A stretch of DNA of 64,000 bases, taken from contig NC_135801.1 in NCBI RefSeq assembly GCF_964213995.1, positions 28,706,001-28,770,000 of the forward strand, read 5' to 3'. Below are positions 1,878 to 62,803 of the stretch, in pieces. The DNA is from Mustelus asterias. Taxonomy: Eukaryota. Position 1 is the stretch's first letter. Each line of letters starts with the position of its first letter. The translations under genes and the position numbers were made by a program. Below the pieces are notes generated by a model that saw only the letters and a program-made list of their open reading frames with translations, did no database searches and was not told where the DNA came from.

Positions 1878-4800
1878 TAAGGCCATCTGCTCCGCCATTC
1901 AATAAGATCTTGGTTGATCTTTTCGTGGACTCAGCTTCACTTGCCCGCCCGCTCACCATAACCCTTAATTCCTTTACCGTTCAAAAATGTATCTATCCTT
2001 GCCTTAAAAACATTCAATGAGGTAGTCTCAATTGCTTCACTGGGCAGGGAATTCCACAGATTCACAACCCTTTGTGTGAAGAAGTTCCTCCTCAACTCAG
2101 TCCTAAATCTGCTTTCCCTTATTTTGAGGCTATGTCCCCTAGTTCTACTTTCACCCGCCAGTGGAAACAACTTCCCTGCTTCTATCTTTTCTATTCCCTT
2201 CATAATCTTATATGTTCCTATAAGATCTCCCCTCACGGCATGGTAGCACAGTGGTTAGCACTGCTGCTTCACAGCTCCAGGGACCTGGGTTCGAATCCCG
2301 GCTCGGGTCGCTATCTGTGTGGAGTTTGCACATTCTCCCTGTGCCTGCGTGGGTTTCCTCCGGGTGCTCCAGTTTCCTCCCACAGTCCAAAGATGTGCAG
2401 GCTAGGTTGATTGGCCATTCTAAATTGCCGCTAAGTGTCCCGGGATGCATAGGTTAGAGGGGTTAGTGGGTAAATATGTAGGGATATATGGATAGGGCCT
2501 GGGTGGGATTGTGGTTGATGCAGACTCGATGGGCCGAATGGCCTCTTTCTGCACTGTAGGATTCTATGATTCTTCTGAATTCCAATGGGTATAGCCTCAG
2601 TCTCTCCTCATAAGCCAACCCTCTCAACTCCGGAATCAACCTAGTGAATCTCCTCTGTACCCCTTCCAGTGCCAGTATATCCTTTCTCAAGTAAGGAGAC
2701 CAAAACTGTACACAGTCGTCCAGGTGTGGCCTCACCAGCACCTTATACAGCTGCAACATAACCTCCTTGTTTTTAAACTCCATCCCTCTAGCAATAAAGG
2801 ACAAAATTCCATTTGCCTTCTTAATTATCTGCTGCACCTGCAAACCAACTCCTTGAGATTCCTGCACAAGGACACCCAGGTCCCTCTGCACAGCAGCATG
2901 CCGCAATTTTTTATCGTTTAAATAATAGTCCATTTTGCTGTTATTCCGACCAAAATGGATGACCTCACATTTACCAACATTGTACTCCATCTGCCAGACC
3001 CTCGCCCACTCACTTAGATTATCTATATCCCTTTGCAGACTTTCAACGTCCTCTGCACACTTTGCTCTGCCATCCATCTTAGTGTCATCTGCGAATTTTG
3101 ACACACTACACTTAGTCCCCAACTCCAAATCATCTATGTATATAGTAAACAATTGCAGTCTCAACACTGATCCCTGAGGCACACCACTAGTCACTGATCG
3201 CCAACCAGAAAAACACCCATTTACCCCATTCTTTGCTTTCTGTTAGTTAACCAATCCTCTTTCCATGCTAATACATTACCCGCAACACCGTGCGGCTTTA
3301 TCTTATGGAGCAGTCTTTGGTGCGGCACCTTGTCAAATGCTTTCTGGAAATCCAGATACACCACATCCACAGGCTCTCCATTGTCCACTGCACATGTAAT
3401 GTTCTCAAAAGATTCCAACAAAATTAGTCAAACATGACCTTTCCTTCATGAACCCATGCTGCGTCTTACCAATGGGACAATTTATATCCAGATGTCTCGC
3501 TATTTCTTCCTTGATGATAGATTCAAGCATTTTCCCTACTACAGAAGTTAAGCTAACCGGCCTATGGTTACCTGCCTTTTGTCTACCTCCTTTTTTAAAC
3601 AGTAGCGTCACATTTGCTGTTTTCCAATCTGCGGGAATCACCCCAGAGTCCAGTGAATTTTGGTAAATTACCACTAGTGCATTTGCTATTTCTCCCGCCA
3701 TCTCTTTTAGTACCCTGGGATGCATTCCATCAGGACCAGGAGACTTGTCTACCTTTAGCCCCATTAACTTGTCCAACACTACCTCTTTCGTGATAATGAT
3801 AGTTTCTAGGTTCTATCCTGCCTTCCTGTCATCAATTTTTGGCATGCTATTTGTGACTTCCACTGTGAAGACCGACACAAAATACCTGTTCAATGCCTCA
3901 GCCATTTTCTCATTTCCAGTTATTACAGTCCTCTAAAGGACCAATGTTTACTTTCGCTACTCTTTTTCATTTTATATATTTGTAGAAACTTTTGCTCTTT
4001 TTATATTCTGAGCTGGTTTACTCATAATCCATCTTACTTTTCTTTATAGCTTTTTTCGTGGCTTTCTGCTGCCCTTTAAGATTTCTCAATCCTCTAGGTT
4101 CCCACTAATCTTTGTCACTTTGTATGCATTTTCTTTCAATTTCATATCCTCCTTTATTTCCTTAGATATCCATGGCTGATTATCTCTTTTTCTCCAGCTC
4201 TTCCTTATCACTGGTATATACTTTTGCTGAGCACTGTGAAAGATTGCTTTGAAAGTCCTCCACTGTTCCTCAATTGTCCCACCAGAAAGTTTTTGCTCCT
4301 ACTCTACCTTAGCCAACTCCTCCCTCATCCCTTTGTAGTCTCCTTTGTTTAAGCACAAGACACTGGTATTGGATTTTACCTTCTCACACTCCATCTGTAT
4401 TTTAAATTCAACCATACTGTGATCGCTTCTTTCAAGAGGATCCCTAACTGCAAGATCATTAATTATTCCTGTCTCATTACACAGGACCAGATCTAGGATA
4501 GCTTGCTCCCTTATAGGTTCCATTACATACCATTCAAGGAAGCTATCAGGGATACATTCTATGAACTCCTCCTCAAGGCTGCACTGACCGACCTGGTTTG
4601 ACCAATTGATATGCAGATTAAAATCCCCCATGATAATTGCTGTACCATTTTTACATGCATCAGTTATTTCTTTGTTTATTTCTCACCCCCCCCCACCCCA
4701 TGATGTCATTATTTAGTGGCCTACAGACTACGCCTATTAGTGGCTTTTTCTCCTTACTATTTCTAATTTCCACCCAAATGGATTCAACTTTTTTCCATAG

Positions 4801-5089: not shown

Positions 5090-5392
5090 TTATAAATTAA
5101 CCCCAGTATCTCACAGATTAATCAGAGCACCTCCTGTAGATGAATGTTTCCTGTAGATTAAACCTAGTACCTCCTATAAATTAACCCTACGACCTCTTAT
5201 AAAATAACCCCAGTGTTTCCTATGGATTAAAACAAACCTCCTGTAAATTAAACAAACTCCTTATAGAATAACCACTGCACCTCCTATAGATTAACCCCCC
5301 ATATAGATCAATCCTCCTATAGATTAACCCCATATATATTAACTCTCCTATAGATTAACCCCCATATAGATTAACCCCCATACAGATTACCC
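5090..5392. repeat. Degenerate short tandem repeat (core ctcctatagattaacccc)
   Basis: Roughly 10-14 imperfect copies of (c)tatagattaacc(cc). Confidence 0.75.
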
Positions 5393-5549
5393 CAGTGGCG
5401 TTTCCCGATTATTTCACACAAACAGTTCGCGATCAAAAATGCTTCAGAGCGATTTTATCCCGAACATTTTCATACAGCTCCTGGAGGTGAGTTATTTTTA
5501 CCGGGTGAATGATTCCCAACCCTCTCCATTAGGCCCCACACACACCGTC

Positions 5550-7052
5550 CTCATAGCAACCAATCACAGCCTTCTCACCGAATGGCCAATCAGGGCCGTG
5601 TAAAGTGAACCAATCAGGGAACCGTAAAACCGTCCCTTCAGCAACCGTTTCCCCCTCCCCCTCACGCGGCCCGCCCCCCGCTCACGCCCCGCTTCCCGCC
5701 CACGGCTCACGCTCCGCCCCCCCTGCGCCTTCACGCCCCGCCCCCCCTGCGCCTTCACGCCCCGCCCCCCCTGCGCCTTCACGCCCCGCCCCCCCTGCGC
5801 CTTCACACCCCGCCCCCCCTGCGCCTTCACACCCCGCCCCCCCTGCGCCTTCACACCCCGCCCCCCCCGCGCCTTCACACCCTGCCCCCCTGCGCCTTCA
5901 CACCCCGCCCCCCCTGCGCCTTCACACCCCGCCCCCCCTGCGCCTTCACACCCCGCCCCCCCTGCGCCTTCACACCCCGCCCCCCCTGCGCCTTCACACC
6001 CCGCCCCCCCTGCGCCTTCACACCCCGCCCCCCCTGCGCCTTCACACCCCGCCCCCCCTGCGCCTTCACACCCCGCCCCCCTCTCACTCCCCGCCCCCCT
6101 CTAACACCCCCGCTGACGCCCCGCCCCGCTCACACACCGCCCCCGCCCCCCCGCTCACGCCACGGCGCGTTCACACTCCGCCCCCCCCCGCTCACACCCC
6201 GCCCCCCCCCCGCTCACACCCCGCCCCCCCCCCGCTCGCACCCCGCCCCCCCCCCGCTCGCACCCCGCCCCCCCTCCGCTCGCACCCCGCCCCCCCCCGC
6301 TCGCACCCCGCCCCCCCCCGCTCGCACCCCGCCCCCCCCCCGCTCGCACCCCGCCCCCCCCCCGCTCGCACCCCGCCCCCCCCCCCGCTCGCACCCCGCC
6401 CCCCCCCCCGCTCGCACCCCGCCCCCCCCCGCTCGCACCCCGCCCCCCCCCCCCTCGCACCCCGCCCCCCCCCGCTCGCACCCCGCCCCCCCCCCCGCTC
6501 GCACCCCGCCCCCCCCCCCGCTCGCACCCCGCCCCCCCCCCCCGCTCGCACCCCGCCCCCCCCCCCGCTCGCACCCCGCCCCCCCCCCGCTCGCACCCCG
6601 CCCCCCCCCCGCTCGCACCCCGCCCCCCCCCGCTCGCACCCCGCCCCCCCCCCGCTCGCACCCCGCCCCCCCCCCGCTCGCACCCCGCCCCCCCCCCGCT
6701 CGCACCCCGCCCCCCCCCGCTCGCACCCCGCCCCCCCCGCTCGCACCCCGCCTCCCCCGCTCGCACCCCGCCCCCAGTCTCCACTCACTCGTCCTCCTCC
6801 CCCGCCCTCTTGCATCCTTCCCCCATCCTACCGTGCGCTCATATCCCGCCCCCTTTCCGCTTGCCCCACCCCCGTCAGCCTCCTGCCCCGCCTGGCGCAT
6901 CCTCCTGTTCCGCTTACCCCGGCCTTCCGAGCCTCCTGCTCCGCCCCGCCGTCCTCCAGCCCCTTCCACGCGCGGTTCGGCGGTGACGCGTTTCCGGCGG
7001 GTTGTTGGCCTGGTGACGGTGAACCACCGCGGTCGGAAGTTTGTGCGGAGCG
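5550..7052 (+). promoter_or_regulatory. CpG-rich promoter and probable non-coding exon 1 of ELMOD2
   Basis: CCAAT at 5560, 5586 and 5610; many GC boxes; ETS-like CGGAAGT at 7034-7040; TGACG half-sites near 6985 and 7014; candidate donors GCG|GTCAGT (7052/7053) and TGT|GTGAGT (7060/7061). The first coding exon has an acceptor only 3 nt before the ATG, so an upstream exon is required. Confidence 0.65.
5700..6776. repeat. C-rich GC-box minisatellite in two zones: 24-bp ccccgcccccctgcgccttcacac (about 5715-6080), then about 20-24-bp ccccgc(c)n-gctcgca (about 6150-6776)
   Basis: Directly visible periodicity; produces the spurious Pro/Gly-rich ORFs. Confidence 0.95.
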
Positions 7053-8371
7053 GTCAGTGTGTGAGTGAAGCGCTGCCTCCCCGGAGCGGTCAGTGTGTGA
7101 GTGAAGCGCTGCCTCCCGGAGCGGTCAGTGTGTGAGTGAAGCGCTGCCTCCCCGGAGCGGTCAGTGTGTGAGTGAAGCGCTGCCTCCCCGGAGGGGTCAG
7201 TGTGTGAGTGAAGCGCTGCCTCCCGGAGCGGTCAGTGTGTGAGTGAAGCGCTGCCACCCCGGAGCGGTCAGTGTGTGAGTGAAGCGCTGCCTCCCCGGAG
7301 CGGTCAGTGTGTGAGTGAAGCGCTGCCTCCCCGGAGCGGTCAGTGTGTGAGTGAAGCGCTGCCTCCCCGGAGCGGTCAGTGTGTGAGTGAAGCGCTGCCT
7401 CCCCGGAGCGGTCAGTGTGTGAGTGAAGCGCTGCCTCCCCGGAGCGGTCAGTGTGTGAGTGAAGCGCTGCCTCCCCGGAGCGGTCAGTGTGTGAGTGAAG
7501 CGCTGCCTCCCCGGAGCGGTCAGTGTGTGAGTGAAGCGCTGCCTCCCCAGAGCGGTCAGTGTGTGAGTGAAGCGCTGCCTCCCCGGAGCGGTCAGTGTGT
7601 GAGTGAAGCGCTGCCTCCCCGGAGCGGTCAGTGTGTGACTGAAGCGCTGCCTCCCCGGAGCGGTCAGTGTGTGAGTGAAGCGCTGCCTCCCCGGAGCGGT
7701 CAGTGTGTGAGTGAAGCGCTGCCTCCCGGAGCGGTCAGTGTGTGTGAGTGAAGCGCTGCCTCCCCGGAGTGGTCAGTGTGTGTGAGTGAAGCGCTGCCTC
7801 CCCGGAGCGGTCAGTGTGTGTGAGTGAAGCGCTGCCTCCCCGGAGCGGTCAGTGTGTGAGTGAAGCGCTGCCTCCCCGGAGCAGTCAGTGTGTGAGTGAA
7901 GCGCTGCCTCCCCGGAGCGGTCAGTGTGTGAGTGAAGCGCTGCCTCCCCGGAGCGGTCAGTGTGTGAGTGAAGTGCTGCCTCCCCGGAGCGGTCAGTGTG
8001 TGTGAGTGAAGCGCTGCCTCCCCGGAGCGGTCCGTGTGAGTGAAGCGCTGCCTCCCTGGAGCGGTCAGTGTGTGTGAGTGAAGCGCTGCCTCCCCGGAGC
8101 GGTCAGTGTGTGTGAGTGAAGCGCTGCCTCCCCGGAGTGGTCAGTGTGTGTGAGTGAAGCGCTGCCTCCCCGGAGCGGTCAGTGTGTGAGTGAAGCGCTG
8201 CCTCCCCGGAGCGGTCAGTGTGTGAGTGAAGCGCTGCCTCCCCGGAGCGGTCAGTGTGTGAGTGAAGCGCTGCCTCCCTGGAGCGGTCAATGTGTGAGTG
8301 AAGCGCTGCCTCCCCGGAGCGGTCAATGTGTGAGTGAAGCGCTGCCTCCCCGGAGCGGTCAGTGTGTGAGT
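7046..8371. repeat. 36-bp minisatellite, left array (about 36 units, cggagcggtcagtgtgtgagtgaagcgctgcctccc)
   Basis: Near-perfect tandem units; translates as repeated RSGQCVSEALPP. Confidence 0.97.
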
Positions 8372-9428
8372 ACCTTCCGGTTGGAGGAAGGTAACTAGTG
8401 GCGTGCCGCAGGGATCGGTACTCGGGCCGCAACTGTTTACCATTTATATAGATGATCTGGAGGAGGGGACGGAGTGTAGGGTAACGAAGTTTGCAGACGA
8501 CACAAAGATAAGTGGAAAAGTGAATCGTGTGGAGGACGGAGAAGATCTGCAGAGAGATTTGGACAGGCTGAGTGAGTGGGCGAGGATATGGCAAATGGAG
8601 TATAACGTTGAGAAATGCGAGGTTATACACTTTGGAGGAAATAATAACAAATGGGATTACTATCTCAATGGAAACAAATTAAAACATGCTACCGTGCAAA
8701 GGGACCTGGGGGTCCTTGTGCATGAGATGCAAAAGCCCAGTCTGCAGGTACAACAGGTGATCAAGAAGGCAAATGGGATGTTGGCCTATATTGCGAGGGG
8801 GATAGAATATAAAAGCAGGGATGTCTTGATGCACCTGTACAGGGCATTGGTGAGGCCGCAGCTGGAATACTGTGTGCAGTATTGGTCCCCTTATATGAGG
8901 AAGGATATATTGGCATTGGAGGGAGTGCAGAGAAGGTTCACCAGGTTGATACCGGAGATGAGGGGTTTGGATTATGAGGAGAGGCTGAGGAGATTGGGTT
9001 TGTACTCGTTGGAGTTTAGAAGGATGAGGGGGGATCTTATGGAGACTTATAAGATAATGCGGGGGCTGGATAGGGTGGAGGCGGAGAGATTCTTTCCACT
9101 TAGTAAGGAAGTTAAAACTAGAGGACACAGCCTCAAAATAAAGGGGGGTCGGTTTAAGACAGAGTTGAGGAGGAACTTCTTCTCCCAGAGGGTGGTGAAT
9201 CTCTGGAATTCTCTGCCCACTGAGGTGGTGGAGGCTACCTCGCTGAATATGTTTAAAGCGCGGATGGATGGATTCCTGATCGGTAAGGGAATTAAGGGTT
9301 ATGGGGATCAGGCGGGTAAGTGGTACTGATCCACGTCAGATCAGCCATGATCTTATTGAATGGCGGGGCAGGCTCGAGGGGCTAGATGGCCTACTCCTGC
9401 TCCTATTTCTTATGTTCTTATGTTCTTA
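8372..9428 (+). mobile_element. Young 5'-truncated CR1 LINE inserted in the minisatellite
   Basis: Uninterrupted RT C-terminal ORF (SGVPQGSVLGP, KFADDTK, ending GKWY* at 9329), CR1-type 3' UTR, (TTCTTATG)n tail; TGAGT at 8367-8371 and 9429-9433 is a possible target-site duplication. Confidence 0.95.
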
Positions 9429-10605
9429 TGAGTGAAGCGCTGCCTCCCCGGAGCGGTCAGTGTGTGTGAGTGAAGCGCTGCCTCCCTGGAGTGGTCAGTG
9501 TGTGTGAGTGATGCGCTGCCTCCCTGGAGTGGTCAGTGTGAGTGAGTAAAGCGCTGCCTCCCCGGAGCGGTCAGTGTGAGTGAAGCGCTGCCTCCCTGGA
9601 GTGGTCAGTGTGAGTGAGTAAAGCGCTGCCTCCCCGGAGCGGTCAGTGTGAGTGAAGCGCTGCCTCCCTGGAGTGGTCAGTGTGTGTGAGTGAAGCGCTG
9701 CCTCCCTGGAGTAGTCAGTGTGTGTGAGTGAAGCGCTGCCTCCCCGGAGCGGTCAGTGTGTGAGTGAAGCGCAGCCTCCCCGGAGTGGTCGGTGTGTGAA
9801 TGAAGCACTGCCTTCCTGGAGTGGTCAGTGTGTGAGTGAAGCGCTGCCTCCCTGGAGCGGTCAATGTGTGAGTGAAGCGCTGCCTCCCCGGAGCGGTCAG
9901 TGTGAGAGTGAAGCGCTGCCTCCCCGGAGTGGTCAGTGTGTGAGTGACGCGCAGCCTCCCCGGAGCGGTCAGTGTGAGAGTGAGGTGCTGCCTCCCCAGA
10001 GCGGTCAGTGTGTGAGTGAGGAGCTGCCTCCCCGGAGTGGTCAGTGTGTGAGTGAAGCGCTGCCTCCCCGGAGTGGTCAGTGTGTGAGTGACGCGCAGCC
10101 TCCCCGGAGCGGTCAGTGTGAGAGTGAGGTGCTGCCTCCCCAGAGCGGTCAGTGTGTGAGTGAGGAGCTGCCTCCCCGGAGTGGTCAGTGTGTGAGTGAA
10201 GCGCTGCCTCCCCGGAGTGGTCGGTGTGTGAGTGAAGCACTGCCTCCCCGGAACGGTCAGTGTGAGAGTGAGGAGCTGTCTCCCCGGAGCGGTCAGTGTG
10301 TGAGTGAAGCGCTGCCTCCCCAGAGTGGTCAGTGTGTGTGTGAAGCGCTGCCTCCCCGGAGCGGTCTGTGTGTGAGTGAAGCGCTGCCTCCCCGGAGCGG
10401 TCAGTGTGTGAGTGAAGCTACCTTCCCGGAGTGGTCAGTGTGTGAGTGAAACGCTGCCTCCCCAAGCGGTCAGTGTGTGAGTGAAGCTACCTTCCCGGAG
10501 TGGTCAGTGTGTGAGTGAAACGCTGCCTCCCCGAGCGGTCAGTGCGTGAGTGAAGCGCTGCCTCCCCGGAGCGGTCAGTGTGTGAGTGAGGAGCTGGCTC
10601 CCCGG
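9429..10605. repeat. 36-bp minisatellite, right array (about 32 more diverged units)
   Basis: Same unit with more variants and a 144-bp higher-order duplication. Confidence 0.96.
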
Positions 10606-10974
10606 TGTGGGAGGGTGTGGGTCTGAGAGCCGGCCTCTGGAGCGGGGCCGGACATTTGTTGCTGTTGAATCCCCGCTCACTTTGCACCTTCAGGGGGCCC
10701 TGTCCTCTGAGCTCTGTCTCCGCCTGCAGTGTTCATGCTGCAGGCTGGGGAAGTGGGACGTGTGCTGGCACTGGGTCAACTCAGACCCACTCACTCGTGG
10801 CTTTACATCAGTATGTTTTTCAAAACCCTTCCCCTCCAAAAGTTTATTTCTTTCAGTATATTTTGACCATCAGCCCATTTCTAAGTTTAATTTATTAGAT
10901 CAGGTTATTAGAAAAGTAAATCGAATTTACTTCTTACTGCAGACATGTTCTGCAAAAGAATCGACAGGCTGATT

Positions 10975-11246: not shown

Positions 11247-12602
11247 GAGAAGCTAACTTGATTCCTCAACTTTTACAACTGTGACTAGATCATTCAATAG
11301 GCAAACCACTCTTGCTATGGTTTTAGTATGATTCTGTGGAGCATATTCCAGAACTTCTGAGAGTTTCTTTTTAATCCATATAGGTTTATTTTTATTTGAA
11401 TGGTGCATGGCATATGAGGGCAAAACCTTGTCTGTTTTGCTGCAAATGCAATTGTTTATGGAGCTGACTCAGCCACAGAGGATATGCTGCTGCATCATCA
11501 CGTGGTTCTTCAATGTTTAGTTAAGACCATAAGAAATAGGAACAGAAGTGGACAGTTTGGCACCTCGAGCCTGCTCCACCATTCAATAGGATCGTGGCTG
11601 CTTCGACATTCCACTTTCCTGCCCTTTCCCTGTAACCCTTGATTCCCTTTTGCTTTGTTTCCCTCCTTACGATGATATTCATTGTAGATTCCTACTACCT
11701 AAAATTACTAAATGGTAACTCATCATTAAGCTGAGTATAGGACTGAAGGGTCAACACAGCCCCAGTTTGCTCCTCTCATCCCATGTTAATATAGGACTAC
11801 AGCTTTTATCTAAACAGCATGGACTAGTTGGTCTTACTGGCCTTTTTTAAAGTTGAAATTTCTGTATGCGTTTATGTAAAAGTCGAGGCCTCAGAGGTTT
11901 TATGCCAAAGTGGCAGATTGAAAATCACACCTTGTTACTAGATTATTACTAGTTTATCGCGCTCAAATTGGATATACTATACACAGGTTTCCAATTTGCA
12001 ATGCTTTATTTTCTCTAACATTTGTTCCCATTTTGTGGAGGTGCTAACTGAAGCCTGAAATAGTTTTTGATGAAGAAGGGCCTTGGGCAACTTGATTTCT
12101 ATCTGTAATCCTCATCCTATCCTGTTACAGCATCTAGTGTTTCTTAAATAAATTAGATCTTCTGGTTTAAATGACAGAAGCTGCTTAAGCTTTAGCAGTA
12201 CTCTATGCCCTGACATGTCCTAAATTTGCCATTCACTAGTTTAAATCCGTTCCTGTAAGCAGCTGCTCTGACATATCTGAAGGCATTGTACTCGGTTTAC
12301 TTTGCACTGAATGTCTGAGGCATCTGTTTTTGAGGTTGAAGAGCCTGTTCATCTAACTTTTCCCAATAGCTTCCTCACAGCCTTTCTTTTTTTGTTTCAG
12401 TACCATTTCCTCCACCTCAGGCAGTTAGAGCTGTGCACGATACTTCAGCTGCAGCCTGAACAGAGCATTGCACAACTTTACCTTGGACAGTTTGCAGGTA
12501 CTGGCTGCTAACTGCTATTTTACTGTGTCTTCATATGTATTCATGAACAGTATGTTTTTGCAAGCTATTTGACTGTGAAGGAAAAAATAGGGAAAACTAG
12601 TG

Positions 12603-12872
12603 GATGGCACAGTGGTTGGCCTTACTGCCTCAGCGCCAGGGACCTGGGTTCCATTCCGGCCTTGCACATTTCCCCCCACCCCCCTTCCCGTGGCTGCATG
12701 GGTTTCCTCCGGGTACTCCGGTTTCCTCCCGCAGTCCCAAGATGTGTAGGTTAGGTGGATTGGCCATGGTAAATGTGGGGGGACAGGGACTGGGCAAGAC
12801 ACTGTCAGAGAGTCAGTGCAGACTTGATGGGCTGAGTGGCCTCCTCCTGCGCTGTAGGGATTCTATGATCTA
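12603..12872 (+). mobile_element. SINE, tail type A (diverged)
   Basis: Similar to 2236-2572. Confidence 0.8.
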
Positions 12873-12889
12873 GATCCTATCCTCACCCA

Positions 12890-15340
12890 GCTTGCATTTA
12901 GACAGCACCTTTAATGTAGCAAAATGTCCCAAACTGCTGAACAAAAGCATAATAAAACAGAAGTTAGCCCAGACTTAGCAAAGTCCAAAGATGTGCGGGT
13001 TAGGTGGATTGGCCATGCTAAATTACCCCTTAGTGTCAGGGGGACTAGCTAGGGTAACAACATGGGGTTGTGGGGATAGGGCCTGGGTGGGATTGTGGTT
13101 GGTGCAGACTCTGAAAAATGGTCATGCTAGTTCAAAGGCTTTGTCAAAAGAGTTTCAAGAAGTGTTTTAAAGCAGGAGAGTCTAAGTTGTATGGAGAAGG
13201 AATTCCACACTTAGTACTGAAACAGCTGAAGTCTCCAGTGCTGGGTTGAAGGAAGTTGCTGATGCGCAAGAGGGCATATTTGAAGGAATGCAGAGTTCTC
13301 AGAAGATCGTATGTAAGGGGGAGTTTACGTAGGTAGGGGCGAGAAGCAATTTAAACACAAGGAGAATATTTTAAAGTCAAGCTGTTGGTGGAACAGCAGC
13401 CAATGTCCTGGTATTTGTGAGCATAGAGTGATGGGTGAGCAAGACTTGGTGTGATTTATGATATGGGCTGAGGTTTCGGGTGGGCTCAAGTTTATGGGGC
13501 ATGGAAGATAGGAAACTGGCATTGAGAGCATTGAAATAGTCCAGTCCAGAGTTAGCATAAATATGAAAAAAACTTATGGTAGTAGATGGGTAATGTTATC
13601 AAGATGGGGCTTGGGCATCAGGGCTAAAGGGGTCAAAGGACATGGGGTGGGAAGGCAGGATCAGGGTATTGAATTTGACGATCAAGCATGATCATAATGA
13701 ATGGTGGAGCAGACTGGAAGGGCCGAATGGCCTACTCCTATTTTCTATGTGTGCATCTATATGTAAGATGGAAGTAGGTAGTTTTAGTGCTAGAGGTAAT
13801 ATGGAGCTGGTAGTTAGGCCACGGTCATGTAGGACACTCTCATTGTAAACAGTCTTATTCAGCCCAAGACAGAAGCTAGGGAGAGGGTTGTCATCAGTAC
13901 CTAGGGAATAGAGTTTCTGGTGGGGGTCAAAAACAATGGCCCATAACTTCCTCTCTCCCCAACTTTGGATGGGGGGGGGGGTACCCTAAAGATGCGCTGC
14001 GGAATCCCCCTGGGAAGTTCCCACGCAAGGGGTACCCAGCAATTTTCGAGAAAGGCTAGCTTCCCCTTGCAGCCATCCACAAAGCGATTTAAATCACTAA
14101 CTTTGGATGGTTCTGCCAGTGTTACTCTGAAAGAGTTAAAAATAAAAGCACTTCTAACTTCAGCAATAACTATTTTAAATACTCAGCCCTGCACGGGGTC
14201 CCTCTGACCGCCCAAGGGACTCCCCCATATCCATTCCCAGCTAAGCACCCCAACCCTCCCCAAGGTAGGGGACCACCGCCCCCCTCCTCGACATAGCCAC
14301 GGCCCAACTTTGAACCCCACCCCCCAAGCATCCCACAGTCTGAACATTGCAGGAGGATCTCGGCTATAACTGGATTGGTAAGAATGAAACCAAGTGAGAG
14401 CAGTCCCATTCACCTGACCAATGGAGAAGAAACAGGGATGTGGTGTTGTCAGGTCGGTTGGCTCAGATTGATTAAGGAAGCACAGTGCACCATGATCACC
14501 AGTTGTGTAATGTCATTGGTGACTGCCAAGGGATTTTTCACTGTGAAAACTGGATTGGAGAGTTTCGAATATGAAACTGGGGGAAAGATAGATGCAGATT
14601 TAGGATGTGATAATGCATTCAAGAACCTTGGAGAGGAAAGAAGTGTTTGGAATTGGATGGTCAGCAGTTTAGTGGGGATAGGATTGAGGACAGGAGGTAG
14701 GTATGGTGGACAAGATACACAACAAATATATCTCTTTTTATATAATAGACACTAGAAAATGGTACGAGTTCTCAGGTGAAGGGAGAACCTTGCTTTGTAG
14801 GTTAGAAGGTGGGAGAGATGTGAGGGGCAGCTGAATGGATTTGTTAAATGGATGCGTGGAGTAAGTATAAAGGAGCTGTTTAAGGAGATAGTTGATGGTG
14901 GAGAAAGGTGGTTATCTTTGCGGTTTAGGATGATCCGAGAGCAGTGAGCAGTTTTGAAAGCTTAATGGTGCTCATTGGTGTTTGATTTGATCCAGCCAGA
15001 TATCGTGATGAACAGCTAAGCTAATTGTTCACTGCATGCAGTCAAAGCTCCATCTTGGAGTTGAAAGGTTGAAAATGGGAACCACAATGAGGGAAATAAC
15101 CAGGGTAAAAGAGAGGTAAAGGTGTTACTGAGGATCATTGCTTTAAATGTAGAGGTGAAGGTGTGATTGAGCAGTTCAGTAGTTGCAGAAATATATGATG
15201 GATAGAGACTGGATAATTAAGAGTTTAAAACTAGAGTTGGAGGTAACTTGGGGCGGGGGTGAATTATCGCCAAAGGTAGACACAAAATGTGGATGGGAGG
15301 GTGTTGTGAGTGATGATGAGGGACACAAAAGTGATCAGAG
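12890..15340 (-). mobile_element. Old degraded L2-like LINE with younger inserts (SINE fragment about 12983-13110, CR1 3' end about 13620-13750)
   Basis: L2-type 3' end (reverse of cttgcatttagacagcaccttta) and RT-like remnant GTALTWFHSY; heavily decayed. Confidence 0.55.
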
Positions 15341-16085
15341 ATGGCCTTCTCGGACAAAACGCATATTTTATAGCAGCAATCATAAAGAGTGATTCGGATG
15401 AGATTCTGTTCCAATTTACTTTTTCACTACCTGAGGAGCAGTGAAGCTAATTTTAGTGATTGGACAAGTCGTAACAAAGAACAGCATTACACTCTCAAAA
15501 CCATTGTGTGTGTGTGTGTCAACCAATTTTTTGTATCATCTTTCATTCTTCCTATTACCATCCAAGATTTTAATGGCTTCAGTGGCCTTGTGGATGCTTG
15601 TTTCCATTAAGCTTGGCTGCTTTAAATTCATGGGTATTATTGGAAAACGTAAGGTCGATCATGTTCAAATTAAGATATTTCTATTTAGCTGGGTGGTAAC
15701 GATTTACTGGTAACTTTAGTTTATTTATTCCTTGTTTTCATGGAAAGAAAATTTGCAGTCGTGATTATAATTCAGTCATAAAGTAAAATGAAATGGAAAT
15801 TTAAATGTGAAAAGGATTAGTAGGACATTCTTTGGCATTCTAAGCATCATATCCTTTTACACCGGGTACTCAAGTTCACATCCGTTCCCACCATCGGTGC
15901 TTGGTGTTGTAGTCTGTGAATAAGATGCTGTTACTGGGAAGCAGCTTTTTGTATTTTGCAGAACTGATTTTTAGGCAGATCTGGAAAGTTTTTACGTTGT
16001 AGGGTCCGAGGCTCAAAGCAGGTTAACCATTCTGTTGTGAATCATATTTAGTGAAATCATCTTTATTTTTTTTCCTCACCAGAAT

Positions 16086-16230
16086 ATGATAGGTTTAATT
16101 TGGCATTACCTGTACAGCTCTCTCCTGAGGTCTTGGATGAAGTGGATTTTAAGAAAGGTTACTGGAAGATGTGAACTACAACGTATTTGTACCAATACTG
16201 TTGAAGGAACAGAGCGCACTATGAAAATAG
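16086..16230 (+). CDS. ELMOD2: ELMOD2 coding exon 1 (exon begins 16083)
   Basis: ttttcctcaccag|AATATG; MIGLIWHYLYSSLLRSWMKWILRKVTGRCELQRICTNTVEGTERTMKI; donor G|gtgagt. Confidence 0.95.
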
Positions 16231-19200
16231 GTGAGTGTTGGGTCAAGCTTCTCCTTTACCTGTGAGTAGGCAAAGGCAAATATGGAATCTATATGTTCCA
16301 GGCTTACTATTTGCACCCAGAGATGTGCTAACAATTGGTACTCTTGTGATTTTTGAATGGCATTTAAAGCAGCTTTGAACCAGTGTGCATGACATCAAAG
16401 CAGATTGTTTTCTATGTTTTTCAGTCTACGGAGTGGAAGTAGAATGCATGCAGCTATATCTGTGGCAGAAAATCTGTGTTGAATCCATTTTAAGACATTT
16501 TAAATTTGATACGTGAATTTCATGAACTCAATCCCAGATGCTGCACATTTATGAAACTATATTTTTCTTGAGTTAGTGATGCGGAAGGCTACATTCTCTA
16601 ATACTGCCATTCCCACAAAGAAGCTGTATGAATGATTGTATGTCATTTGCCATCTGCTGCAGCTAGAATAACCATAAAGCCTATCAATATTTGTTTTGTG
16701 CACAACTTAACATTCTAACTTTTTTGGACGTGATATATATTTTAATTTTGAGAAAGAAATAGTAACATAGAAAAGCTGTAAGTCTATGTTGTCCTACATT
16801 TCAGTAAAATAATATATTTCTTCAAGATCATTGTTCAGTTTTACCTGCTAAACTATTCCAGGTATTGATAACCCCTTCAAAGTATTGAGTCCTGTGAGAA
16901 TCTAACTCTTAATTGATGCTCATCCCTTTTGTACTGGCACGAGACACAAAAACAAATAATCTGACTAATCCTTTACATTCCCAAACCTCATTAAAAAAAA
17001 ACTCAACTAATATTTGTCCTCCGTTTTCTCCTTTATCTGGTGCAGAATATCCCAGTTCATTCTCCAGCTGCCTTTTCATCTGAATGAACCCGTTCTGTAT
17101 CTTTTTAAACTGTGGATTCCAGAACTGCACATTATACACTAGGTTGGGTATGACTGGCATTGTAAATAGTGAAAAGATAGTTTTCACTGATTTTCGCTTT
17201 GTGCAACTGAACACCCCTTTAATTCCTTTTGGCCACAGCCACTCATTAACTTGTACCTTGCTAATTGCTTTGCAGCCTTGTTTCTGATGATTGTAAACTT
17301 TTATCTGATATTAATGTAAGACTGGACCACAGTTATCCAGAACGTAAACTCATCCCTTTCCAAATAATGCATGGGACTATATTTGTAGCTATTAATGCTG
17401 AAAGCAAGACCACAAACTTCAAATGAAAAGTATTCAGTCTTTTGAAACAGTTGGAATAATTGTCAACCTCCGTAAACATTGGTATCTGTCTTAATGTGCT
17501 TCTTTGGCATTCATAGCTTGATTTAAACATATTTCCTCAAAGTTTTTTTAAATCTACTGAATTATGTCAAAATATTTAAGCTAAATACTAAAATTAATAT
17601 TTTTTTAATAGAATATTCTTTGGAATCTTCCAAAAATGAGGTAAGTGAGATTCATTTTTTTGTGCATGTCTGTATCTGCATGTTAAACAATATTGTTCTT
17701 AGTTACTAATGTAGAATTAACATACTTCAAATAGAACTGGCCTCACTGTCAAAATCCTGGCCCTGGATCACAATTTTTCTGTGTTTCAGCTCTCTTCCTC
17801 CCTCCCCTGAGTTCCTTGGTTTTATTTTGAAAGTTGGGAGGATCCACAAGTTACTCAGCTAGAATGCAGAAGGAAGAAAGATAAAACCCAGTGACAAAAA
17901 TGAAATAAAGCTCTAAGTAATCCAGTCCACCAAAACACACTGACAGATGCTATTCTGAGCACAGAAATCCCAATCATCGCAGTACAATGTCACGGAAAGG
18001 GGGAGGGGAGAAGAGAATGGGCAGTATCTTTAATCTCCTGAGTATAATAGTAAAGTTAATGACTTTAATACATGACATTAAGGGAAACAAACTGTTTCCT
18101 CTGCAATATGTGTAATCATAATCCCTCAGTAATATTTACCTATCCAGGCACTGACCCTGGAGTAGTCCCGTCAGTAGACCAGAATGTTTAATTGAAGTTA
18201 GCTTTAAGCAGTGAATAAGATAAAATGAAACTGAGCAAAATATTTAAATTTTCCATTACAGTTTTGCACTTGTTGCCACTTCTGCCCTCCGAGGAATTTT
18301 TTTTTACTGCTGAGTTTTACCATTTTCAAATCTTGGGAGTAATAGATAATTGAATAAGAAAGCGAGTACAGTAACATGGGGGATAGCACAGTGGTTTTCA
18401 CTGCTGCTTCACAGCACCAGGGACCTGGGTTCATTCCCGCTTGTGTCACTGTGTGGAGTTTGCACATTCTCCCCATGTTTGCGTGGGTTTCCTCCGGGTG
18501 CTCCAGTTTCCTCCCACATCCTGAAAGACATACTGGTTAGGTGCATTGACCTGAACAGGTGCCGGACTCGGGGAATTTCACAGTAACGTTAATGCAGTGT
18601 TAATGTAAGCCTTACTTGTGACTAATAAATAAAAACTTTTAAAAAAACTTTAGACTTTATGTTTCAACTGCGAACATTCGCACCTTTTTATGGTTTTTAA
18701 CACCACTTCTCTTTAGACATTCACAATACTTATTATAATAACTTTGCTCTGACTAATTAGTTTTTTCATTAATTGTTTCTTGTTAGGTTTTAAAGGCAGC
18801 AGTGACTGTCAGTGAGGCAAATGTGGCAAACAGAGTTCGTGACATAATGGAGATTAAAAAGATTTCCATTCAGAAAGATCCGAAGTAAGTTGTGTTGCTG
18901 TTCTTCAGTTAGTTTGACATCTCATGCTCAAAATTCATCCACAGCCCCATTAACCTCTTCAGTGCCTCCTGTGGGTCTTTGTTTTTTGAACTTTTAATTT
19001 ACATTTTTTAAATATCTGCTAATCGTGCTTATTTGTGTATCACTTGTAAATTTCCTTCAGTGCCTGGGCCAAGTGAGCATTCTTCATACAAATACAGAGG
19101 ATGTTGGAAATCTGAAGCTTAAACAGAAAGTTCTGGAAATATGCAGCAGTTCGGGCAGCATCTGTGGAGAGAGTGTTAGTGTTGCAAGTTGGTGACCTTT

Positions 19201-28200: not shown

Positions 28201-28558
28201 TCTGTCCTCTTGTAATTCAAATGTTGAATGCAAATAACACATCTGAACCACAGCACCAGGGAATTGTACAGATTTTTAGGCAGTTAGTTAGGCCTGCAAG
28301 TGAGAACATACAGACTTTTCTTTTGGTCATGGTAAATATACAGGATGGAAGAGAAGCATTGTGATACAGCCAGACTTCATGAATAATAGTTTCCATCTTG
28401 TTTTAGGTTACCTAATGTACGAGTTTGATCAATTCTGGTTTAAGGAGGAGCCATCGAGCATCATGGAATTCAACCTCTACAGAGAACAATTTCATGGAAG
28501 AATAAAACAACTCTTACAAGATCCCAAAACAGGGCTTAAACTGAATTTCAACAAATAG
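16086..28558 (+). CDS. ELMOD2: ELMO domain-containing protein 2 (ARF/ARL GAP), spliced CDS: join(16086..16230,17612..17640,18787..18884,22873..23002,23969..24102,25061..25129,26102..26235,28407..28558), 891 nt, 296 aa
   Basis: All introns are GT-AG and phases are consistent (145+29+98+130+134+69+134+152=891). Translation resembles vertebrate ELMOD2 throughout: WMKWILRKVTGRCELQRI, ELMO GAP motif QWGDIGFQGDDPKTDFRGMG, YSYAIVGINLTEMAY, YLMYEFDQFWFKEEP. Confidence 0.96.
17612..17640 (+). CDS. ELMOD2: ELMOD2 coding exon 2 (29 nt)
   Basis: ttttaatag| (E)YSLESSKNE |gtaagt; restores frame. Confidence 0.92.
18376..18650 (+). mobile_element. SINE, tail type B
   Basis: Similar to 89-388. Confidence 0.85.
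18787..18884 (+). CDS. ELMOD2: ELMOD2 coding exon 3
   Basis: tgttag| VLKAAVTVSEANVANRVRDIMEIKKISIQKDP |gtaagt. Confidence 0.93.
19090..19275. mobile_element. Imperfect palindromic non-autonomous element; related copies near 25810-25910, 42160-42256, 43660-43745 and 52670-52830
   Basis: ctggaaa..ggcagcatctgtggagagag arm and its reverse complement; recurs in the window. Confidence 0.6.
19488..19820 (-). mobile_element. SINE, tail type A
   Basis: Reverse-complement similarity to 2236-2572. Confidence 0.85.
20690..21110 (+). mobile_element. Old CR1 RT fragment
   Basis: Remnant NCRPINLTSVVGKLL..QHGF..DFQK. Confidence 0.7.
21723..22127 (-). mobile_element. CR1 3' fragment
   Basis: CR1-type 3' UTR and C-terminal ORF2 remnant in reverse orientation. 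Confidence 0.75.
22873..23002 (+). CDS. ELMOD2: ELMOD2 coding exon 4
   Basis: ttccttag| FKLNLQTCLLQISGFKKLFADIENLRKQPFDSSNKQHEDMLKK |gtacat. Confidence 0.93.
23969..24102 (+). CDS. ELMOD2: ELMOD2 coding exon 5 (GAP motif)
   Basis: cttttag| LWNLLMPHVHLESRITKQWGDIGFQGDDPKTDFRGMGMLGLHNL |gtaagt. Confidence 0.96.
25061..25129 (+). CDS. ELMOD2: ELMOD2 coding exon 6
   Basis: cttttag| FFGDHYTETARQTLSHSTHPKI |gtaagt. Confidence 0.93.
26102..26235 (+). CDS. ELMOD2: ELMOD2 coding exon 7
   Basis: ttccag| YSYAIVGINLTEMAYSMMKSGLLKTHFYNLVPGVPQLQHFHQFY |gtaagt. Confidence 0.95.
26395..26855 (+). mobile_element. RTE-clade LINE 3' fragment
   Basis: Remnant RGQRKCFNALKASVQKCNIPTN..KW, resembling the RTE ORF C-terminus, plus 3' UTR. 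Confidence 0.6.
27095..27482 (+). mobile_element. Third SINE/LINE-tail family (type C), diverged; related copies near 41440-42095 (-), 50665-50995 (-) and 60455-60800 (+)
   Basis: Shared cccatctggttc.ctaatgtcctttagggaaggaaatctgcc..tgtgactccaga core and gggcaataaatgctggcc tail. Confidence 0.7.
28407..28558 (+). CDS. ELMOD2: ELMOD2 last coding exon
   Basis: ttttag| YLMYEFDQFWFKEEPSSIMEFNLYREQFHGRIKQLLQDPKTGLKLNFNK*. Confidence 0.95.
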
Positions 28559-31945: not shown

Positions 31946-32678
31946 AGTCACAGAAACTAGAAGCAGGAGTAGGCCATTCAGCAACTCGAGCCTGCTCCGC
32001 CATTCATCTTGACCATGGCTGATCATCAAATTCAATATCCTGAATCCCCCTTCCTCCCATATCCCTTGGTCCATTTAGCCTCGAGAGCTATATCTAATTT
32101 CTTCTTGAAATCAAACAACTTTTTGGCCTTAACTACATTTGGTGGTAGTGAATTCACAGATTCACCACCCTCTGGGTGAAGAAATTTCTCCTCACTTCAG
32201 TTCTAAAAGGTTTACCCCTTATGCCCAAACTATGACCCCTAGTTCTGGACTCCCCCACCATTGGGAACATTTTTTCTGAATCTACCCTGTCTAGCCCTGT
32301 TAGAATTTTAGAACTTTCTATGAGATCCCCTCTCACTCTTCTAAACTCCAGTGAATATAATCCTAACCGACTTCGTCTCTCCTCATATGACAGACCTGCC
32401 ATTCCAGGAATCAGCCTGGTAAACCTTTGCTGTACTCCCTCTACAGCAAGGACATCCTTCCTCAGATAAGGACACAAACTGCACATAATACTCCAGGTGT
32501 GACCTCACCAACACCCTATACAATTGCAGCGAAACATCCCTATCCTTATACTCAAATCCTCTCGCTATGAAAGCCAACATACCATTTGCCACCTGTGCCT
32601 GCACGCTTACTTTCACGAGGACTCCAAGGTCTCGTTGAGTATCCACCTCCCTCAATTTACACCATTCGAGTAATAATT
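31946..32678 (-). mobile_element. CR1 3' fragment, inserted in a GC-rich MITE-like element spanning about 31700-33240
   Basis: QRDLGVLV..ANGMLAFIARG..RRNFFTQRVVNL and 3' UTR. Confidence 0.9.
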
Positions 32679-57295: not shown

Positions 57296-59085
57296 TGATG
57301 AAGGCTAAGATTCCATTAGCCTTCCAAATAGCTTGCTGCACCCGAATGTTAGCCTTCAGTGACTTGTGGACAAGGACACACAGATCCCTTTGTATATCTA
57401 CACTTTCCAATAACTTACCTTTTAGGAAATACTCTGCACATCTGTTTCTTTTCCAAAGTGAATTACTTCACATTTTCCACATTATATTCTATCTGCCATG
57501 TTCTTGTCCACTCACTAAGTTTGTCCAAATCCCCCGGTGGGCACTTGAATAAGACCATCAGATATATGAGCAGAATTAGGCCATTCGGCCCATTGAGTCT
57601 GCTCTGCCATTCAATCATGGCTGATAAGCTTCTCAACCCCATTTGCCTGCTTTTTCCCCATAAACTTTCAAGAATCTATCTATTTCTGTCCTAAATACAC
57701 TCAATGTCTTGGCCTCTACAGCCTTCTGTGGCAATTAATTCTATAGATTCATCACCCTCTGGCTGAAGGAATTCCTCTTCATCTCGGTCCTAAAGGGTTG
57801 TCCCTTTACTCTGAGGCTGTGCTCTCGGATTCTAATCTCTCCTACTAATAGAGACATCTTCTCCATGTCCACTCTATCCAGGCCTTTCAGTATTCTGTAA
57901 CTTTCAATCAGATCCCCCCCTCATCCTTCTAAACTCCATTGAGTACAAACCCAGAGTCCTCAAACGCTCCTCATATGTCAAGCTTTTCATTCCGGGGATC
58001 GTTCTCGGGAACCTTCTCTGGACCCTCTCCAGGGCCAGCACATCCTTCCTTAGATACGGGGCCCAAAATTGCTCACAATATTCCAAATTGGTCTGACTAA
58101 ATCCTTATAAAGCCTCAGCAGTACATCCCTGCTTCTGTATTCTAGTCCTCTCAAAATGAATACTAACATTACATTTTCCTTCCTAACTAACTACCAACTC
58201 AACCTCCAAGTCCTAAACTAGGATCCCAAGTCCCTTTGCACTTCTGATTTCTGAATTCTCTCCCCATTTAGAAAATAGCCTACACCTCTATTCTTCCCAC
58301 CAAAGTATATAGCCTCACACTTTCCCACATTGTATTCCAAGAACCTGTCCAAGTCCTGCTGCCTCACTGCCTCCTCAATACTACCTGTCCCTCCACCTTT
58401 CTTGTATCATCTGCAAACTTAGCCACAATGCCTTCAGTCCCTTCATCTAGATCATTGATGTATAAAGTGAAAAGTTGTGGTCCTAACACTGACCCCTGCA
58501 GAACTCCATTAGTCACCGGCTGGCATCTTGAAAGGACCCCTTTATATCCATTCTCTGCCAGTCAGTCAATCTTCTGTCCATGCTAGTACCTTGCCTCTAA
58601 CACCATGGCTCCTTACTCAGCAGCCTCCTGTGCGGTACCTTGTCAAATGCCTTCTGGAAATCCAAATAGATAACATCCACTCGCTCTCCTTTGTCTAATC
58701 TGCTCATTACCGTCTCAGAGCGTTCTAACAGTTTTACATCTTCCTCACAGCACACATTCCCACCTAACTTGGTATCATCAGTGAACTTGGAAATATTACA
58801 CCTGGTCCCCACACCCAAATCATTGATATATATTGTGAACAGCTGGTCTAAATACTGACCCTTGCAGTACCTCACTAGCCACATTTATTCCGGCTCTCTG
58901 TTTTCTGCCTGTTGGTCACCCTTAATTCATGCCAGTATAATGCTTTCTATCCCATGTGCATTTACTTTGCTAACCAGCTTCCTGTGGGGGACTTAATCAA
59001 AAGCCTTCTGAAAGTCCAGAACAATGTCCATCAACTCTCCTTTGTCAATTTTGTTCATAATATCCTCAAAAAACTCCAACAAGTT
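57296..59085 (-). mobile_element. Nested CR1 fragments (younger copy about 57550-58720 inside an older copy)
   Basis: YLDFQKAFDKVPHRRL, KFTDDTKLGG, EYCEQFWAPYLRKDVLALERVQRR. Confidence 0.85.
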
Positions 59086-61613: not shown

Positions 61614-62803
61614 ACCTCCAGGGCAGGACTTACTCAGTTAATGGTAGGGCATTGGGGAGAGTTATAGAGATCTAGGGGTACAGGTTCATAGCTCCTTAAA
61701 AGTGGAGTCACAGGTAGACAGAGTGGTGAAAAAGGCATTCAGCATGCTTGGTTTCATTGGTCAGTAAGAAGTTTAACAACACCAGGTTAAAGTCCAACAG
61801 GTTTATTTGGTAGCAAAAGCCACACAAGCTTTCGGAGCTCCAAGCCCCTTCTTCAGGTGAGTGGGAATTCTGTTCACAAACAGGGCATATAAAGACAGAG
61901 ACTCAATTTACATGAATAATGGTTGGAATGCGAATACTTACAGCTAATCAAATCTTTAAGAAACAAAACAATGTGAGTGGAGAGAGCATCAAGACAGGCT
62001 AAAAAGATGTGTATTGTCTCCAGACCAGACAGCCAGTGAAACTCGGCAGGTCCAGGCAACTGTGGGGGTTACAGATAGTGTGACATGAACCCAATATCCT
62101 GGTTGAGGCCGTCCTCGTGTGCGGAACTTGGCTATCAGTTTCTGCTCAGCAACTCTGCGCCGTCGTGTGTCGTGAAGGCCGCCTTGGTCAGAACATTGAA
62201 TACAAGAGTTGGGACATCTTGTTGAAGTTGTACAAGACATTGATAAGGCTACACTTGAAATACTGTGTACAGTTCTGGTCACCCTATTATAGAAAGAATA
62301 TTATTAAACTAGAAAGAATGCAGGAAAGATTTACTAGGATGATACCAGGACTTGATGGTTTGAGTTATAAGGAGAGGCTGGATAGACTGGGACTTTTTTC
62401 CTGGAGCGTAGGAGACTTAGGGGTGATCTTATAGACGTCCATAAAATAATGAGGAACATAGATCAGTGAGATAGTCAACATCTTTTCCCAAAAGTAGGAG
62501 AGTCTAAAACTAGAGGGCATAAGTTTAAGGTGAGAGGGGTGAGATACAAAAGGGTCCAGAGGAGCAATTTTTTCAGACAGAGGGTGGTGAGTGTCTGGAA
62601 TGAGCTGCCAGAGATAATAGCAGAGGCGGGTACAATTTTTTCTTTTAAAAAGCATTTAGATAATTACATGGGTAATACGGGTATAGAGGGATATGGGCCG
62701 AACGCGGGCAATTGTGATTAGCTTAGTAGTTAAAAAAAAAGGGTGGCATGGACAAGTTGGGCCGAAGGGCCTGTTTCCATGGTCTATGACTCTATGACTA
62801 TAT
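61614..62803 (+). mobile_element. CR1 3' fragment split by a Penelope-like insertion
   Basis: IEYKSWDILLKLYKTLIRLHLKYCVQFWSPYY..NFFRQRVVSVWNELP; tail (ctatgact)n. Confidence 0.9.
61765..62183 (-). mobile_element. Penelope-like retroelement 3' fragment with hammerhead motif and 8-bp TSD
   Basis: RRRVAEQKLIAKFRT remnant; similar to 31237-31668; ttggtcag at 61757-61764 and 62184-62191. Confidence 0.82.

Follow-up and report, generated by a model that had tools for sequence, protein, structure and literature searches.

The start of the ELMOD2 gene in the shark Mustelus asterias raises the question of whether an exon–intron boundary has itself been amplified in tandem and, if so, which of the many resulting donor-like sites is used in splicing. 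We analyzed a window of 64,000 nucleotides around this gene, in which a 36-bp minisatellite begins at the end of a non-coding first exon (Table 1).

The ELMOD2 gene and its first exon

Judged by its sequence, the gene is ELMOD2. Its product contains an ELMO_CED12 domain (Pfam PF04727), and the first coding exon is 100% identical to ELMO domain-containing protein 2 of M. asterias and 77–90% identical to eight other matches, seven of them named chondrichthyan ELMOD2 and one unnamed. At least four RefSeq accessions have this same protein, which indicates that UTR variants exist; several same-protein accessions are also found for Scyliorhinus, Chiloscyllium plagiosum and Hemiscyllium.

Exon 1 is single copy, with one match in the assembly. 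As the sequence-only reading on which this analysis follows up had described, CpG-rich unique DNA (6776–7045; GC 0.69, CpG observed/expected 0.99) abuts the first repeat unit directly. When conservation of exon 1 was sought through the N-terminal extensions of cartilaginous-fish proteins, one of 11 matched: that of P0044, which aligned to the exon 1 core with a score of 34.2, against 21.2 at the runner-up place (0/200 shuffles). The scores of the other 10 were reached by 54–196 of 200 shuffles. A skate profile built in two frames, with 51 compatible bases, ranked 7051 second among upstream places on the + strand, which was not significant (61/1000 shuffles). On the 3' side of the exon 1 core lies a weak donor-like site, ACG/GTGAAC at 7018/7019 (U1 pairing −5.6 kcal/mol).

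Table 1. Features of the ELMOD2 locus, in positions of the window
Feature	Position	Strand	Remark
Three CCAAT boxes (5560, 5586, 5610)	5560..5614	+	Possible promoter elements, from sequence
C-rich tandem repeat, 22–24 bp, GC ~85%	5736..6775	+	Adjoins and partly overlaps transcribed exon 1 on its 5' side
ELMOD2 non-coding exon 1, minimum extent	6739..7060	+	Spliced X3 contig; no ATG
Exon 1 core matching P0044 N-terminal extension	6979..7018	+	Chiloscyllium punctatum ELMOD2 model
Left arm, 36-bp minisatellite	7046..8371	+	Homogeneous, 0.36 substitutions per unit
GTCAGT motif of unit 1 (GCG/GTCAGT)	7053..7058	+	Retained as exon in spliced contig
5' splice site in use for intron 1, TGT/GTGAGT of unit 1	7061..7066	+	X3 spliced contig
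5'-truncated young LINE fragment, ~1.06 kb	8372..9428	+ (sense)	Within unit 37
Right arm, 36-bp minisatellite	9429..10605	+	More diverged, 2.19 substitutions per unit
Second non-coding exon, unique, no ATG	12401..12497	+	Start from junction; end placed at CAG/GTACTG by inference
First ELMOD2 coding exon, with its ATG at 16086	16083..16230	+	
Seven more ELMOD2 coding exons through stop codon	17612..28558	+	tblastn of P0002 on window

Structure and genomic specificity of the array

Tandem Repeats Finder returned a 36-bp period for both arms (left, 36.6 copies with 96% matches; right, 32.6 copies with 87% matches), and parsing of the units gave 69 anchors of ~36 bp, in line with the earlier estimate of about 69 units. 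The array had been taken for a 3.5-kb repeat; it is present, but true repeat sequence amounts to 2,503 bp only, and the remainder is an inserted LINE that had been overlooked. Unit 1 is composed of the final 15 nt of exon 1 followed by the initial 21 nt of intron 1. The right arm carries block duplications of 69, 72 and 144 bp. The absence of ATG claimed for the consensus is true of the most frequent unit, and ATG occurs in five variants (at 8290, 8326, 9511, 9800 and 9864).

Between 7040 and 10610 there are 65 GTGAGT and 62 GTCAGT motifs (127 donor-like hexamers together), compared with 0.46 and 0.18 per kb, respectively, on the + strand outside the array. The earlier figure of more than 100 candidate donors is thus right as a motif count, but only one motif class has been seen used. 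Leaving out unit 37, which the LINE splits, GTGAGT is intact in 35/36 units of the left arm and 26/32 scored units of the right (61 intact in all). The donor hexamers, at 1.17 substitutions per position versus 1.5 at other non-CpG positions, are not clearly better kept, and CpG transitions account for 37 of the 83 substitutions, confined to 6 of the 36 unit positions.

The 36-bp unit is locus-specific within the 3.68-Gb genome by exact matches: the matches of two unit queries (22/22 and 30/30, exact matching only) all fell inside this array. Locally, a 30-mer of the unit gave 48 matches at ≤3 mismatches, and 0/100 shuffles matched at all. A genome-wide satellite, which would have undone the sequence-only reading, was rejected on the exact matches. 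Unit-to-unique depth in run X1 was 20.6 and 26.8, where the assembly predicts 21.2 and 26.2, and in run X2 it was 25.0; these two runs may be from the assembly's own sample. Run X4 gave a ratio of 15 versus 23 expected, at a shallow unique depth of only 3.5. This run has DNA-like depth and adapter letters at loose ends, presumably Tn5-type, and was kept out of the splicing analysis.

The LINE entered at the GTGAGT motif of its target unit and is flanked by a target-site duplication of 3–5 bp. It comprises the C-terminal part of a reverse transcriptase (RVT_1, E 3.6e-12; 307 open codons) and a short tandem 3' tail, and has putative poly(A) signals at 8678 (ATTAAA) and 9137 (AATAAA). A 33-mer from it had 18,219 exact genome matches in a pattern search, and two of four other copies checked showed 98.8% and 98.2% identity. 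With its RT domain, 5' truncation, tandem tail and high copy number it would fit the CR1 type. A young LINE within the array provides an internal marker for arm-specific homogenisation.

Choice of the exon 1 donor

The splicing evidence consists of assembled contigs of one run (X3; one sample, one study), a form in which rare products are lost; X3 is not recorded as RNA, and we infer its RNA nature from a GT-AG junction. X3 contig 15 (696 nt, depth 29.7) has 0 differences over 6760–7060, extends 21 letters further upstream, and after 7060 jumps to 12401 across a canonical GT-AG intron. The letters from 12401 onward occur once in the window and follow a pyrimidine tract with AG. Unlike X3, runs X1 and X2, which are DNA-like, continue past 7060 to 7075. 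Exon 1 therefore ends within unit 1 in this spliced contig of one run, which bears out the proposal that the exon 1/intron 1 junction is repeated in tandem and places ELMOD2 exon 1 here and not elsewhere. In place of the acceptor proposed earlier, 16083, the junction uses that of the 12401 non-coding exon; a main form in which exon 1 joins 16083 directly was not seen. A processed pseudogene was also ruled against as the origin of this junction, as neither UTR exon has a second copy (one match each), and an exonised repeat at 12401 was rejected because the sequence is single copy. Exon lengths of 322, 97, 148, 29 and 98 bases sum to 694 and, with two letters common to intron 4 and exon 5, give the 696 nt of contig 15, which is consistent with the proposed exon chain; the 12497–16083 junction would follow by this length arithmetic only.

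The first donor dominates splicing: the sole junction in 3/3 X3 contigs is that of unit 1, with minor use of units 2–3 possible. Neither a later-unit donor nor read-through from unique exon 1 into the array appeared in the three contigs examined, and the ladder of 5' UTRs in 36-nt steps once envisaged for this locus found no counterpart among them. The X3 unit contig, which represents ~23 identical copies, had a depth of 9.5; a single copy thus receives 0.42, or ~1.4% of the depth of the exon contig. Use of ACG/GTGAAC at 7018/7019 as a donor was likewise absent from the spliced contig. U1 duplex energy failed to predict which donor is used: the used site pairs at −6.3 kcal/mol, the GTCAGT that is skipped, 8 nt further upstream, at −7.1, and the three strongest ELMOD2 donors at −10.8 to −12.5. 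Since the used donor is weak and the stronger GTCAGT is skipped, a strict 'most upstream site' rule cannot explain the choice within unit 1.

We consider it likely that this is a locus-specific minisatellite whose unit 1 holds the working exon 1 donor and whose other 68 units are probably unused and removed with intron 1. The first duplication would have taken in 36 bp over the exon 1 end, a stretch with a short imperfect direct repeat at either edge; slippage between these two is the probable mechanism. Expansion may then have proceeded by ordinary minisatellite turnover, together with the block duplications seen in the distal arm. Unit 37 later received a young LINE, and the arm next to the exon presumably stayed or became more homogeneous; the structure is as observed, the order our proposal. 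The most upstream competent donor, TGT/GTGAGT of unit 1, was joined to the 12401 exon in one run, possibly through a first-site preference by analogy with F7 intron 7. The array, which is confined to non-coding DNA, is most probably neutral. Were the unit 1 donor lost, the next unit is predicted to act as a buffer, lengthening the 5' UTR by just 36 bases without an ATG. Later donors in a 5' UTR carry no frameshift penalty, a consideration that counts against this explanation.

A different history is conceivable, if doubtful, in which an older shark donor at 7018/7019 weakened to GTGAAC in this lineage and splicing shifted 42 nt downstream to GTGAGT, so that the array would be an amplified former intron now providing the donor. 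The P0044 match covers 6979–7017 and then passes straight to the residue before the shared start Met, with the weak ACG/GTGAAC exactly at that boundary. P0044, however, is a single gene prediction named 'hypothetical protein', whose boundary may be misplaced or represent a minor variant, and the non-significant skate match ending at 7051, if real, would assign the start of unit 1 to an ancient exon. Such a shift alters the history and not present splicing, and is compatible with the preferred explanation. Present splicing itself would differ if units 2–3 were used at a low level beside a dominant unit 1, giving 5' UTRs longer by 36 and 72 nt; protein output would then change little if at all. 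The intact GTGAGT of nearly all left-arm units, the ATG-free commonest unit and the multiple accessions for one protein agree with this, as do the two extra pseudo-sites employed in CBS and 6-16 (PMC1557585) and the one-unit retention in ABCA7 (PMC5954066). It is nevertheless unlikely: the three X3 contigs lack any later-unit junction or exon-to-array read-through, same-protein accessions also exist in the three other genera, and the 12401 UTR exon is a simpler source of variants.

U1 snRNP protects nascent RNA, and the array might be functional if U1 loaded across its 3.5 kb kept the transcript from being cleaved too early, for instance at the AATAAA of the LINE, or tuned output by length. 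The 127 donor-like hexamers near the promoter and the two poly(A) signals in the sense LINE would suit such a role, and VNTR length affects exon 19 skipping in ABCA7 (PMC5954066). The motifs show no sign of selective retention, though, the array is locus-specific with ordinary CpG decay, and a LINE insertion has been tolerated; we regard a regulatory array as highly improbable. Also highly improbable is a combined reading in which the array both supplies and backs up the first donor, the 7018/7019 donor having decayed, and in which a small 5' UTR ladder or the ELMOD2 mRNA level in some tissues depends on array length or on the LINE allele. Assemblies often misjudge the size of tandem arrays, but we give virtually no credence to an assembly artefact, or to a satellite unrelated to the junction, when every exact match lies in this array, the X1 and X2 depth ratios agree with the assembly and the spliced junction is located in unit 1.

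Comparison with known boundary-spanning minisatellites

The locus is a further natural instance in which the first of a series of identical 5' splice sites is preferred; 61 of its units have an intact GTGAGT, and no reading frame constrains them. Nonsense-mediated decay should not mask products of later donors, since the exon is non-coding and the units are ATG-free, and the locus should therefore offer a cleaner test of scanning versus surveillance than F7, CBS or ABCA7. Were array length to alter ELMOD2 output, the shark locus would count among the regulatory VNTRs.

A literature search on shark ELMOD2 and shark boundary-spanning minisatellites returned nothing on this locus. The array nonetheless belongs to a kind already known, the boundary-spanning (F7-type or 'mirage') minisatellites, which have 10–160 bp units, the used boundary in a terminal unit, repeated donors and a single locus. 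The first donor likewise prevails in human F7 intron 7, ABCA7 and CBS and in the amphioxus repeats. A close likeness is that to human F7 intron 7, a 37-bp VNTR in which only the first of 5–9 identical donors is used (Borensztajn et al., 2006; PMC1557585): in both, unit 1 lies over the exon–intron boundary, identical donors follow one another, splicing takes the first alone and the units are of similar size. In F7, 5–9 units with four exonic bases each follow a coding exon, whereas in shark ELMOD2 69 units with 15 exonic bases each follow a non-coding first exon and enclose a LINE. Polymorphism and pseudo-site competence have been demonstrated for F7.

Boundary-spanning units with 10–25 repeated donors are also described for the human CBS intron 13 31-bp VNTR, whose repeat unit is c.1444_1467+7 (PMC2630376), interferon-inducible 6-16, LAMIN B2 and PDGF (PMC1557585). 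The two nearest pseudo-sites are used as well in CBS and 6-16 (PMC1557585), unlike in ELMOD2, where no pseudo-site use was seen in one sample. The amphioxus 'mirage' minisatellites of Adh3, BflGb6 and BflGb9 leave splicing undisturbed (PMC3087553) and share with ELMOD2 a tandemly duplicated boundary, splice signals kept in many units, regular splicing and within-cluster homogenisation; ELMOD2 differs in being a vertebrate case, in a 5' UTR exon, with more copies than the globin cases (3–6). Human ABCA7 intron 18, the type of the splicing-regulatory tandem repeat or spl-TR (PMC10078293), holds a 25-bp VNTR of 12 to ~427 copies, one unit of which is retained in a minor isoform (De Roeck et al., 2018; PMC5954066). 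Its array, like that of ELMOD2, starts at the donor and combines high copy number with a donor-like GT per unit. The ABCA7 units, however, begin at GT and have no exon part, whereas those of ELMOD2 include 15 exonic bases, and in ABCA7 both the one-unit retention and an effect of length on downstream exon skipping have been measured (PMC5954066).

Splicing at the exon 1 boundary

Mustelus asterias ELMO domain-containing protein 2 maps to eight coding exons, the last ending at 28558, and the mapped protein contains the ELMO_CED12 domain; at least four RefSeq accessions have this one protein in common, and several other sharks likewise have more than one accession per ELMOD2 protein. Four sequencing runs contain 6776-7260, none on record as RNA, and their contigs were compared with 6760-7125. 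In one run, X3, contig 15 (696 nt, depth 29.7) follows 6760-7060 with 0 differences and then continues into letters found once in the window, at 12401, directly after a pyrimidine tract and AG. The skipped sequence begins GTGAGT at 7061, and from this canonical intron we infer that X3 is RNA. Contigs of the DNA-like runs X1 and X2 are unspliced and continuous through 7075. Exon 1 thus ends within unit 1 of the 36-bp array (15 nt exon, 21 nt intron), bearing out the core idea of the sequence-only reading, that the exon 1/intron 1 boundary lies inside the repeat unit. Of the two donor-like sites noted there, GTGAGT at 7061 is used, but GCG/GTCAGT 8 nt upstream is read through, and the acceptor proposed at 16083 gives way to one at a further non-coding exon. 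This exon, absent from the earlier account, is unique in the genome, and no second copy of either UTR exon was found in the assembly. Exon lengths of 322+97+148+29+98, together with 2 letters common to intron 4 and exon 5, add up to the length of contig 15, fitting the chain 6739-7060, 12401-12497, 16083-16230, 17612-17640 and 18787-18884, in which the first junction alone was directly observed.

At its 5' end the spliced contig reaches about 36 bases into the upstream C-rich repeat, which may belong to the 5' UTR, in which case arrays would flank exon 1 on both sides. In skate-type ELMOD2 transcripts (P0006, P0029-P0037), reading the 5' UTR in frame gives a short Arg-Pro/Asp-Pro-Thr-type repeat whose copy number varies, pointing to an unrelated microsatellite directly before the start codon.

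The ladder of 5' UTR lengths in 36-nt steps once proposed does not appear in the X3 contigs on 6760-7125, all three of which were covered (one spliced, two array-only): none has a later-unit junction, and none runs from unique exon 1 into the intronic bases of unit 1, as any form of ladder needs. The X3 unit contig has depth 9.5 over about 23 identical copies, per copy 1.4% of exon contig depth, a level expected from unspliced RNA or a DNA background. Depth of contigs is an unreliable measure, rare forms are lost from contigs, and the evidence is from one sample, so low-level use of donors in units 2-3 is possible.

Features of the ELMOD2 locus (window positions)
Feature	Position	Strand	Remarks
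AT-rich tandem repeats, 16/23/31/47 bp	5149-5393		just upstream of CCAAT boxes
Three CCAAT boxes	5560-5614	+	upstream of C-rich repeat
C-rich tandem repeat, 22-24 bp	5736-6775	+	GC about 85%; fills CpG island upstream of exon 1
Minisatellite left arm	7046-8371	+	36.6 copies, 96% matches
LINE fragment, 5'-truncated	8372-9428	sense	307 open codons, RVT_1 match
Minisatellite right arm	9429-10605	+	32.6 copies, 87% matches
ELMOD2 non-coding exon 2	12401-12497	+	joined to exon 1 in X3; 3' end inferred
ELMOD2 coding exon	16083-16230	+	48 encoded residues identical to Mustelus asterias ELMO domain-containing protein 2

Structure and history of the array

The array lies where the sequence-only reading had placed it and has 69 units, but in two arms, separated by 1,057 bp of non-repeat DNA, the LINE fragment. 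The array region contains 65 GTGAGT and 62 GTCAGT sites, whereas their densities on the + strand outside it are 0.46 and 0.18 per kb; ATG is absent from the commonest unit and present in five variant units. Exact searches of the 3.68-Gb assembly placed all matches to a unit 34-mer (22/22) and a 20-mer (30/30) inside the array, confirming a unit specific to the ELMOD2 locus. Unit-to-unique depth (X1, 20.6 and 26.8; X2, 25.0) agrees with assembly k-mer multiplicity (21.2, 26.2), a check on the assembly and not on polymorphism, because both runs come from a single sample, which may be that of the assembly itself. At 10606-10635, two contigs from X1 and X2 exit the array 3' end with flank letters whose mutual agreement is only 0.85, and which differ from the assembly in a few places, possibly reflecting a second allele.

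The LINE fragment entered unit 37 precisely at its donor-like GTGAGT, and TGAGT flanks both sides. Its 3'-end 33-mer has 18,219 exact matches genome-wide, and two of the four other copies checked show 98.8% and 98.2% identity over 1,054 bp, making this a young insertion. The fragment brings ATTAAA (8678) and AATAAA (9137) into intron 1; older relatives lie at 1887-3210, 31952-32590, 57549-58182 and 62195-62454 (68-76% identity).

Counting departures from the commonest unit, with the LINE-split unit left out, gave 13 substitutions for the 36 units of the left arm and 70 for the 32 of the right. CpG transitions, found at 6 of the 36 unit positions, account for 37 of the 83. The average is 1.17 substitutions per position in the two donor hexamers and 1.5 at the remaining non-CpG positions, giving no clear sign of selection. 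Within the right arm, blocks recur exactly at lags of 69, 72 and 144. The array start, CGGAGCGG, and the sequence directly after the array, CGGTGTGG, together form an imperfect direct repeat, a possible seed for the first duplication.

The N-terminal extension of P0044, a Chiloscyllium punctatum ELMOD2 gene model (hypothetical protein), matches 6979-7017 with a score of 34.2, against 21.2 for the next best in 16 kb on both strands (0/200 shuffles), independent evidence that this is conserved exon 1 sequence. None of the 10 other N-terminal extensions matched, and a skate two-frame profile against the locus was not significant. The P0044 model boundary falls at 7018/7019, where Mustelus asterias has a weak ACG/GTGAAC, not seen used. 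Both orders, an amplified unit that already was the donor or one that became it later, are compatible with present data.

Relation to known boundary repeats

The ELMOD2 array is a real, locus-specific, boundary-spanning minisatellite with its first donor in use; putative regulatory readings of it are unlikely. Literature searches turned up nothing on this shark locus, and the kind is already known. Human F7 intron 7 is described as having a 37-bp boundary-spanning unit with 5-9 identical donors, the first alone being used, as also reported for LAMIN B2 and PDGF, and two extra sites are given as used in 6-16 and CBS (PMC1557585). In ABCA7, where a 25-bp unit begins at the donor, retention of one unit and an effect of length on exon 19 are reported (PMC5954066), and amphioxus boundary repeats, termed 'mirages', are described as leaving splicing intact (PMC3087553). 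Compared with these, the large copy number, non-coding first exon and internal LINE of the ELMOD2 array are differences of degree.
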